Source of the DNA: a virus
Lineage: Duplodnaviria; Caudoviricetes
Virus record (IMG/VR): IMGVR_UViG_3300032218_002590
Location: 1-64,000 of that record
DNA: 64,000 nucleotides
Direction: 5' to 3' (one strand)
Shown here: positions 1-1,930 of the stretch, piece by piece
How the letters are laid out: every line of letters starts with the position of its first letter
Position numbering within the stretch: position 1 is the first letter of the stretch
Position numbers and translations under genes: made by a program
The notes under the pieces: model-generated
What the model was told of the DNA's origin: nothing
What the model saw: the letters and a program-made list of their open reading frames with translations, nothing else
Databases searched by the model: none

Positions 1-338
1 TGGAAAGGACCACCGTTATACAACCATTCATCTAAGGAAGCAGCTTCCCAGATAGGATAGAAGTGAAGACCAATAGCATTAGAAGAAGGAACAACAGCAC
101 CAGAGATGATGTTGTTTCCATACATTAGAGAACCAGAAACAGGTTCACGAATGCCGTCAATGTCCACAGGAGGAGCACCAACGAATGCGATGATGAAACA
201 AATCGTAGCAGCAAGCAACGTTGGAATCATCAACACACCAAACCAACCAACGTAAAGACGGTTGTTTGTAGAAGTAACCCACTGGCAAAAAGATTCCCAG
301 AGGTTAGTAGAATTGCGTGTAGCAATAGTAGCAGTCAT
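1..338 (-). CDS. psbA: Photosystem II D1 protein, 5' part (runs off the window start)
   Basis: Manual translation from ATG at 338: [112 protein letters not shown]; not in the supplied ORF track. Confidence 0.98.
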
Positions 339-344
339 TTTCGT

Positions 345-462
345 AAAAGGGTAAAGTATGAGTTCAAGGGGAATTGAACAGTTACAGTATTCCTACACCA
401 CCCTCCAGTGTAGGTATGAGAGACGGATTTTACTTGCCCATTATTCTCGGTGGGGCAAGGTT
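345..462 (-). ncRNA. PhotoRC-II-like structured psbA leader RNA
   Basis: Minus strand has stem CTTGCCC/GGGCAAG with a CCGAGA loop complementary to downstream GTCTCTC (possible pseudoknot), stem CCTACAC/GTGTAGG and stem GTTCAA/TTGAAC, directly upstream of the psbA ATG. Family name is from recall of the cyanophage PhotoRC-II motif. Confidence 0.75.
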
Positions 463-490
463 GAGAAATGTTTTGATTTCCTAACAATGT

Positions 491-524
491 ATTTATCATA
501 GCACAGGTTGCCCTCCGCTGTCAA
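491..524 (-). promoter_or_regulatory. sigma70-type promoter for psbA with overlapping late-like ATAAATA
   Basis: TTGACA (524-519), 18 nt, TATGAT (500-495), running into ATAAATA. Confidence 0.8.
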
Positions 525-861: not shown

Positions 862-867
862 TTTTTT

Positions 868-885
868 ATTACAAATTGTTACAAT
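868..885. promoter_or_regulatory. HLR1-like direct repeat (candidate RpaB site)
   Basis: Plus strand ATTACAAA-TT-GTTACAAT vs HLR1 consensus (G/T)TTACA(T/A)(T/A)-N2-(G/T)TTACA(T/A)(T/A), one mismatch; abuts the hli -10 box. Confidence 0.6.
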
Positions 886-921
886 ATTATATGTGAAAAA
901 GGGGAGCATGTCAAGCTCCCC
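886..921 (-). promoter_or_regulatory. Fused intrinsic terminator / consensus sigma70 promoter for the hli genes
   Basis: GGGGAGC-TTGACAT-GCTCCCC-TTTTT hairpin; TTGACA (914-909), 17 nt, TATAAT (891-886). Confidence 0.85.
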
Positions 922-934
922 AATTGTTTTGATA

Positions 935-1792
935 TTAGAACTTGAAACCCAGTCCGGTGGTAAAGACCGGGCTGTAACTACCTCTATTAGCAGAAGTGTT
1001 GGTAGGGAACTTCAGGTCAGCAAATCCAACTAGGGAGTTGGTGATACGACCTTCAGCACCAAGCACAAATACTGCTTGACCATTGGAAAGACCAACAGCA
1101 TTTTGAGCGTTAGCTTGAGTGTTGTTTACAAAAGGAACTTGATAACCAACACCAGTGTAGATGTTAGCAGCACTCACACCTGCTTTGCGAGCGATTGCAA
1201 AATCATAAGTGGCAGTCACACCACCACCAGCACCGATTTGGCTGTTAGGACCAGCAACGGCATTGATGTAGGGACGGACAGAAATAGCGTTGTTATTGCT
1301 GTAGTTTTTCACAGCATAACGAGCTTGTAGAGTGCCACCAGACACAGTGTTGTTCGGGCTTCCACCTGTACCAACATTGTTTAGCAGAACACCAAGACCA
1401 AGATAGTTGCCGACTCCTTGTGCTTTCTGAGCAGCAGCGATTTCTAAGGCACCTACACGGGCGTTAGTGGCACCGATTTCCTTAGCGAACTGAGCACGAA
1501 GAGCAGATGCTAGAGCAGCGTCAGCGGCGCTCTGGTACTCGCTGATGCGATCAAGGCAAGCATTGGTGAGAGCAGCAAGCTCAGCACGGGTTGCAGGTTG
1601 ACCAGGCTTGAAGGTGCCATTAGGATAACCAGCAACACAACCATAACGAGAAATCAGGTTAGAAATAGCCTGGTAAGACCAGTCAGTAGGTTGCACATCT
1701 TTAAATTGAGTGACACTAGTTACTTGTGCCATTGCAGGAGCAGCAGCAGTAGCAACAACCACCGCAGTGGCAATAAAAGAACGAATCATCAT
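935..1792 (-). CDS. SLH-domain outer-membrane beta-barrel protein (cyanobacterial porin-like N-terminus, short barrel)
   Basis: Signal peptide; QVTSVTQFKDVQPTDWSYQAISNLISRYGCVAGYPNGTF...TRAE resembles the SomA/SomB porin SLH domain; helical linker; amphipathic beta strands; C-terminal GLGFKF. Confidence 0.85.
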   Translation of the reverse strand: MMIRSFIATAVVVATAAAPAMAQVTSVTQFKDVQPTDWSYQAISNLISRYGCVAGYPNGTFKPGQPATRAELAALTNACLDRISEYQSAADAALASALRAQFAKEIGATNARVGALEIAAAQKAQGVGNYLGLGVLLNNVGTGGSPNNTVSGGTLQARYAVKNYSNNNAISVRPYINAVAGPNSQIGAGGGVTATYDFAIARKAGVSAANIYTGVGYQVPFVNNTQANAQNAVGLSNGQAVFVLGAEGRITNSLVGFADLKFPTNTSANRGSYSPVFTTGLGFKF

Positions 1793-1830: not shown

Positions 1831-1848
1831 TATGTAAAGTTTTATAAC
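1831..1848 (-). promoter_or_regulatory. Second HLR1-like direct repeat upstream of the porin-like gene
   Basis: Minus strand GTTATAAA-AC-TTTACATA (one mismatch), about 18 nt upstream of a TATAGT -10 candidate at 1813-1808. Confidence 0.5.
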
Positions 1849-1858
1849 TTTTAGGGCA

Positions 1859-1930
1859 AGCGGCTGACTGGATTCGAACCAGCGACATCTAACTTGGAAG
1901 GATAGCGTTCTACCACTGAACTACAACCGC
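1859..1930 (-). tRNA. tRNA-Gly(TCC)
   Basis: GCGGTTG...CTTCCAA anticodon loop...GTTCGAATC...CAGCCGC cloverleaf; no encoded CCA. Confidence 0.97.

Follow-up and report, generated by a model that had tools for sequence, protein, structure and literature searches.

The hli promoter of the window (the whole 64-kb stretch of IMGVR_UViG_3300032218_002590 analyzed here) carries an 8-2-8 direct repeat resembling HLR1, the operator bound by the cyanobacterial response regulator RpaB. Comparison of related phages supports the view that this box is a genuine cis-element, specific to the promoter, lying over the predicted transcription start, and conserved across hundreds of cyanophage hli promoters. We read the box of the window, with slightly better than even confidence, as an RpaB operator that overlaps the transcription start and was acquired with the hli promoters of hosts. 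Binding of RpaB to the hli HLR1 and repression in low light are experimentally established in model strains; there, an HLR1 centered from -38 to +23 is the mark of promoters that RpaB represses and high light induces, and the zone from -66 to -45 is activating (PMC6525291). The window belongs to a 79-kb contig from a T4-like cyanophage that is about 42% complete, and the nearest public DNA to this contig comes mainly from freshwater metagenomes.

Direct reading and a pattern search confirmed the match that the earlier note had pointed out upstream of hli-1 (Table 1). Compared with KTTACAWW-NN-KTTACAWW, the plus-strand repeat shows exact spacing and a single mismatch, an A for K at its first base. 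Base 885 of the motif adjoins base 886 of the hli -10, such that this reverse register begins directly after the -10 hexamer. The adjoining promoter, also correctly described before, lies on the minus strand and matches the sigma-70 consensus at 12 of 12 positions in a promoter scan, which is the form of the sigma-70-type early promoters of T4-like cyanophages (TTGACA, 16-18 nt, TATAAT before a gene). Read on the strand of the gene, the same DNA contains a second, forward-register box (882..865) with three mismatches to the HLR1 consensus, and this one is the positional homologue of the boxes GTTACAGT-TC-TTTACAAA in P-HM2 and GTTGCAAT-TC-TTTACAAA in S-PM2d. The predicted start is an A whose column is kept in 125 of 142 relatives. 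Relative to this position, which was deduced from the -10, the center of the box would fall at about +5 to +8, inside the repressing zone.

Table 1. Features of the window around the hli promoter, with positions counted from the first base of the window.
Feature	Position	Strand	Basis and remarks
HLR1-like 8-2-8 repeat, reverse register	868..885	+	ATTACAAATTGTTACAAT, that is ATTACAAA-TT-GTTACAAT; pattern search
HLR1-like box, family-wide forward register	865..882	-	GTAACAAT-TT-GTAATAAA; begins 3 nt past the -10
hli -10 hexamer TATAAT	886..891	-	Promoter scan
hli -35 hexamer TTGACA	909..914	-	Promoter scan; 17-nt spacer to the -10
Predicted transcription start, an A	879..880	-	Deduced from the -10 position, 6-7 nt past it
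Intrinsic terminator of the SLH-domain gene	896..921	-	GGGGAGC-TTGACAT-GCTCCCC + T5
tRNA-Gly	1930..1859	-	
Second HLR1-like box, GTTATAAA-AC-TTTACATA	1831..1848	-	One mismatch; upstream of the SLH-domain gene, in the gene's orientation
SLH-domain gene (outer-membrane-like, porin-like)	1792..935	-	PF00395
hli-1, 69 aa	861..652	-	Pfam PF00504
hli-2, 40 aa	652..530	-	Pfam PF00504; overlaps the hli-1 stop
psbA promoter TTGACA-18-TATGAT, TG-extended	524..495	-	Promoter scan
psbA, 5' part (N-terminus)	338..3	-	Pfam PF00124; runs off the contig

The promoter is fused to the terminator of the upstream gene. This terminator consists of a 7-bp GC stem, a 7-nt loop, and a T5 run (-15.1 kcal/mol, z -4.11); the hli -35 hexamer lies within its loop, and its T-run forms the promoter spacer. 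The same fusion, with a GC stem around TTGACA, is present in most relatives' hli promoters.

HLR1 sites were scored with the IUPAC consensus and with a small host matrix of our own. Genome-wide significance of the single HLR1 match was rejected. At no more than one mismatch, the 64-kb window contains two matches where 0.45 are expected, a count also attained in 10 of 100 shuffles; at no more than two mismatches it contains 14 against 7.1 expected, about a twofold excess at most. Across four complete cyanophage genomes, matches with up to two mismatches were no commoner than those of a reversed-pattern control. The claim thus cannot rest on the consensus match. The host-derived matrix, built from 14 host hli-upstream sites that were partly picked with the phage matrix, gave the window site 10.4 bits in the forward and 6.0 bits in the reverse register, against maxima of 10.9 to 16.7 bits in shuffled copies of the contig. 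The site is therefore at background level with this matrix, by which it ranks about tenth in the contig. At the homologous position, the same matrix gave 20.8 bits in P-HM2 and 14.1 bits in S-PM2d.

A matrix derived from the phage family behaved differently, giving the window hli site 18.7 bits, the best score in the 79-kb contig (next best, 14.4) and above the maxima of all 20 shuffles (at most 16.1 bits); no second site in the 79 kb exceeded these maxima. The earlier note had held that scores of this level being common in the AT-rich intergenic DNA of the genome would speak against its reading. Because the host-matrix scores lie inside the shuffle range, this is in part what we found for the site in isolation. 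We also considered whether the box could be a generic feature of phage early promoters, and rejected it: among 16 strong sigma-70-like promoters in the contig, only that of hli has the box, which is absent from the other 15.

Support for the box came from related cyanophages. IMG/VR was scanned three times, with the Hli proteins of the window, P-HM2, and S-PM2, yielding 240 loci, to which the GenBank isolates P-HM2, S-PM2d, S-RSM4, and S-SM1 were added; these relatives are phylogenetically related, and the counts overstate their independence. In nearly all of about 240 loci and in the four isolates, TTGACA-17-TATA[A/C/G]T is followed after exactly 3 nt by a direct repeat of 8-2-8 form (family consensus, GTWAYRWW-TC-KTWAYAAA); from the -10 to the hli ATG the distance is 27-33 nt. 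The -10 itself is near-invariant among the promoter-anchored relatives (TATAAT, TATACT, or TATAGT). The columns of the repeat are far better conserved than their immediate flanks and less so than the near-invariant -35 and -10. When 98 unique 28-nt leaders were compared with the HLR1 consensus, 88% came within three mismatches, as opposed to 4% of composition-matched shuffles. Different loci have different genes upstream of the promoter while promoter and box stay constant, so that the two travel with hli as a module. The comparison of related hli promoters proposed as a check in the earlier note showed a box conserved in a fixed register at about 240 loci.

These data also bear on the possibility that the box has no function and resembles HLR1 by chance, in AT-rich intergenic DNA. 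The 0.45 one-mismatch matches expected per window, the two found in 10% of shuffles, and the background score with the host matrix would fit such an origin. However, the box is position-fixed and conserved in the 98 unique leaders, drawn from about 240 loci with differing neighbors, and its family-matrix score lies above all 20 shuffle maxima. Chance is already contradicted by the comparative data, and we give it hardly any credence. What exceeds chance is the position of the box and its conservation in relatives.

The strand on which the box best matches HLR1 depends on the clade. Only two registers (forward at +3, reverse at 0) account for the best HLR1 match of 86 of the 98 leaders; with a single mismatch in the reverse register, the window is unique among the 98. 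In P-HM2 and S-PM2d, the hli boxes are one-mismatch HLR1s in the forward register, each being the sole one-mismatch HLR1 of its own genome. In the clade of the window, both half-sites have A instead of T at position 3 (GTAACA, GTAATA). The half-sites are both near-palindromic and TGTAAC is the reverse complement of GTTACA, so that this T-to-A change in the two of them makes the opposite strand the better HLR1 match. Position 3 is A or T in both half-sites of 82 sequences, of which 48 are A/A, 15 T/T, and 19 mixed (raw counts). The reverse-strand match described in the earlier note does exist, but the register held across the family is the forward one, 3 nt past the -10.

We next turned to the hli promoters of the hosts. 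A first search with a phage Hli protein returned mostly internal genes of hli clusters, the upstream regions of which are coding, and was replaced by a whole-locus scan in which the phage-only matrix was run over 304 kb of picocyanobacterial hli loci, chosen for their hli content. Of 21 unique matches of at least 13 bits, 18 lay within 100 nt upstream of an hli-type open reading frame and in the orientation of the gene, a zone that makes up 3.4% of the positions scanned; at least two of the other three were also found upstream of hli genes on inspection. The host layout consists of a -10, 3-4 nt, and GTTAYAKT-TC-TTYACA, often with a second HLR1-like repeat across the -35/-10. The box is thus both conserved at orthologous phage promoters and common to host hli promoters, and in layout and spacer it is the same kind of element as the box of host hli operons. 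Several host hli promoters (L082-L092, L272, L282, L298) have two tandem HLR1-like repeats, one from the -35 to the -10 and one 3-4 nt past the -10; these make four half-sites with a period of about 10 bp, and the downstream repeat has a TC spacer like the phage box. Among the expression modules of Prochlorococcus MED4, that of HLI shows the strongest enrichment in RpaB motifs (bioRxiv 10.64898/2026.04.15.718746). Matching the box variant of the window to a host clade was abandoned as too anecdotal: the freshwater Synechococcus hli promoter L096 (GTAACAGT-CC-GCAATAAT) resembles the window variant, but it is a single case, and its box spans the -35 to the -10.

A different explanation for the conservation is that the sequence serves as a promoter start region and short mRNA leader, selected for initiation, promoter escape, and translation without a Shine-Dalgarno sequence, and is not an operator; its likeness to HLR1 would then be left over from capture of a host hli promoter. 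From the predicted start, the hli-1 leader is about 18 nt long, A-rich, and without Shine-Dalgarno sequence. Its RNA (minimum free energy -1.4 kcal/mol, z +1.74) is less structured than 198 of 200 shuffles. An RNA-structure explanation of the leader was rejected on this result, which is what selection to keep the translation start open would produce. Conservation extends to the AAAAC(G)AAA tract that precedes the hli ATG, and both the background host-matrix score of the window site and the lack of a light response of hli in S-PM2d (PMC5931967) would agree with a start region. Against this explanation, the best-conserved columns include a T-G-T upstream of the predicted start and outside the mRNA, indicating a constraint on the DNA and not on the mRNA alone. 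Moreover, a need for an unstructured, A-rich leader does not account for the exact 10-bp direct-repeat pattern with its fixed TC spacer, genes without Shine-Dalgarno sequences are also served by the 15 remaining strong promoters of the contig, none of which has the box, and the same box is retained in host hli operons with leaders of anywhere from 3 to 52 nt. We consider a pure start-region or leader function unlikely.

If the box is an RpaB operator, a dimer of phosphorylated host RpaB would occupy the two half-sites, which are spaced by 10 bp and straddle the start, when light is low or absent. It would thereby keep the open complex from forming, or the polymerase from escaping, at a promoter that otherwise has the sigma-70 consensus. 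Light or redox stress would inactivate RpaB, upon which the promoter would fire and express hli-hli, plus psbA by read-through. The terminator with the -35 in its loop would act as an insulator, such that the hli promoter and not upstream transcription sets the level. We infer RpaB binding to the drifted GTAACA/GTAATA version, as well as the start position and any light response.

Two observations lower our confidence in this RpaB operator. The box of the window's clade has drifted and scores low with the host matrix, and hli of S-PM2d, in spite of its one-mismatch HLR1, gave no high-light response. In that study, the one published high-light versus low-light phage transcriptome, only psbA responded and hli was not differentially expressed (PMC5931967). 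The design pooled samples from 1 to 9 h (PMC5931967), which could hide a transient derepression of hli. The proposal of the earlier note that the phage has kept host RpaB control is hence favored by a conserved box of the host hli kind and weakened by the low-scoring site of the window itself and by the S-PM2d result. Our search of the literature on RpaB, HLR1, and cyanophages found no experimental test of, or binding data for, a cyanophage promoter, and a search on transcription-start mapping in Syn9 or another cyanomyovirus found none. In public RNA data, the contigs covering this stretch come from relatives and show neither the start nor expression of the window phage.

Another protein might instead occupy the box, whether an early protein encoded by the phage or a host regulator other than RpaB, and it could be a symmetric dimer. 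Perfect palindromes (TTGTAAA-TC-TTTACAA) occur at the hli promoters of two loci (L042, L193) and at the SLH-gene promoters of two others (L014, L007), half-sites are found in both orientations across the family, and the psbA box of S-PM2d is an arm of a long inverted repeat (PMC5931967), all of which would suit such a protein. Nevertheless, most variants are direct and not inverted repeats, and the same box upstream of hli operons in uninfected host genomes makes a phage-only factor unneeded. A search of the 79-kb contig also revealed no encoded OmpR-type DNA-binding domain; a phage-encoded regulator of this type was set aside accordingly, although about 42% completeness makes this evidence weak. 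A factor other than RpaB therefore seems to us a distinctly improbable reading, and RpaB remains our preferred candidate for binding the box.

The box precedes genes of the types known from the RpaB regulon, hli and psbA, as identified by Pfam, and tRNA-Gly, the SLH-domain gene, hli-1, hli-2, and psbA all lie on the minus strand. The earlier note had the promoter drive hli-hli and then psbA, as a possible photosynthesis cassette under control of the host light sensor. Pfam and the promoter scan confirm hli-hli behind this promoter, but psbA has a promoter of its own (524..495) and a leader of about 150 nt (339-494, minus strand). After the -10 of this promoter comes AAA-TACATTGTTAGG, an HLR1-like box shortened to a single half-site. 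With a best box match of four mismatches, and truncated, the psbA promoter was rejected as being under the same control as hli. Any RpaB-type control of psbA would thus depend on read-through that starts at the hli promoter, and a cassette forming one RpaB-controlled unit is not supported except by that route. A short psbA box is common to a few relatives (L033, L072), and the full box is found in L046 and L075.

The truncated psbA box of the window differs from that of S-PM2d, whose psbA promoter consists of a consensus sigma-70 promoter, AAA, and then the reverse-strand 8-2-8 repeat TTAACATT-TG-TTTACCTA, in the same register as at hli. This box makes up one arm of an inverted repeat of 36 bp that was read as an RNA hairpin by the authors, who reported no motif common to hosts (PMC5931967). 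Read directly, the psbA promoter in both S-PM2d and S-SM1 has AAA and then TAGGTAAACAAATGTWAM, a reverse-strand HLR1, after it. In these two phages (S-PM2d, L303:1680-1760; S-SM1, L302:1560-1600), the psbA box has the form (G/T)T(T/A)ACATT-TG-TTTACCTA and lies exactly 3 nt past the -10. By pattern match alone, S-RSM4 has the same reverse-strand motif (FM207411.1 8716-8733). S-PM2d also carries TTAACATA-CC-TTAACATA just upstream of psbD.

A broader idea, which we offer tentatively and regard as doubtful, is that a small 'RpaB regulon' may exist within T4-like cyanophages themselves, with an operator 3 nt past the -10 of consensus sigma-70 promoters before both hli and psbA. In this regulon, the psbA copy would be on the opposite strand in S-PM2d, S-SM1, and S-RSM4, similar 8-2-8 boxes would stand at other positions before the SLH-domain outer-membrane-like gene, and the half-sites would flip strand together in some clades, tracking the box variant of the host clade. 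If so, the redox sensing of the host would switch phage photosynthesis genes in general, whatever the orientation of the operator. This could also account for the dependence of cyanophage transcription on light and DCMU, the mechanism of which was left open (PMC6628666), as was that of the light control of cyanophage gene expression (PMC5931967; PMC6628666).

The hli box of the window can be set beside known RpaB operators, namely, those of hliA in S. elongatus PCC 7942 and hliB in Synechocystis 6803. Both phage and host elements are direct repeats of the 8-nt (G/T)TTACA(T/A)(T/A) with a 2-nt gap, precede hli genes, and lie over the transcription start (predicted for the phage), a repressing position. 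They differ in that the phage copy, a putative operator, resides on a lytic phage genome and has GTAACA and GTAATA half-sites that match the consensus better on the opposite strand. The core of the phage promoter, a perfect sigma-70 consensus fused to a terminator loop, is also atypical for host hli promoters.

Occurrences of HLR1 in cyanophage genomes have already been stated, in passages that cite a 2018 review (PMC6525291; bioRxiv 10.1101/443713). As far as these passages go, the concept is the same, a host-type HLR1 before phage photosynthesis-related genes. The concept is thus known, and the family-wide anatomy of the box is what is added here: an uncultured freshwater phage as a new instance, the register past the -10, and the spread over about 240 loci. 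The precedent for host control of phage auxiliary genes is the Pho box, through which host PhoBR controls cyanophage pstS and phoA (Zeng and Chisholm 2012, as cited in PMC5931967 and PMC6628666). There too, according to these citations, a host response regulator and a host-type site tie a phage gene to the state of the cell. The two cases differ in regulator (the OmpR-family PhoB versus RpaB) and in signal (phosphate versus light or redox). PhoB activates, as was shown experimentally according to the same citations, whereas the position of the hli box predicts repression.

An RpaB operator of host type at the hli promoters of phages, and at the psbA promoters of some of them, would be a concrete and cheaply testable mechanism of light control. 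If true, phages would be tying auxiliary genes to a host two-component system for a second time, the first case being PhoB with the pho box. Through the comparison, what was one weak motif match becomes a defined target with a fixed register and the TC-spaced layout of the hosts, absent from other promoters. For the window phage itself the value is modest, the concept being already published and its own box drifted and low-scoring.

The box upstream of the SLH-domain gene (1848..1831) is the only other one-mismatch HLR1 site in the 64-kb window. Similar boxes are found upstream of the orthologous gene in five relatives (L014, L052, L062, L064, L007), in differing promoter contexts. These SLH-gene boxes follow GTTRTAAW-WC-TTWACAWW and stand behind tRNA-Gly or about 20 nt downstream of TTGACA-17-TATAMT, and several variants are perfect palindromes, TTGTAAA-NN-TTTACAA. 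In S-PM2d (LN828717.1 113455-115012), the gene order is tRNA-Gly, a 'putative S-layer protein', one extra ORF, and hli, which is common to the window phage but for the extra ORF; the region upstream of its SLH gene contains no HLR1-like box. Finally, a freshwater metatranscriptome (X19) includes an 881-nt contig that is about 94% identical to 542-862 (hli-1/hli-2) and then diverges, running for 560 nt into sequence unlike that of the window upstream of hli. This divergence points to a related phage with a different upstream neighbor.
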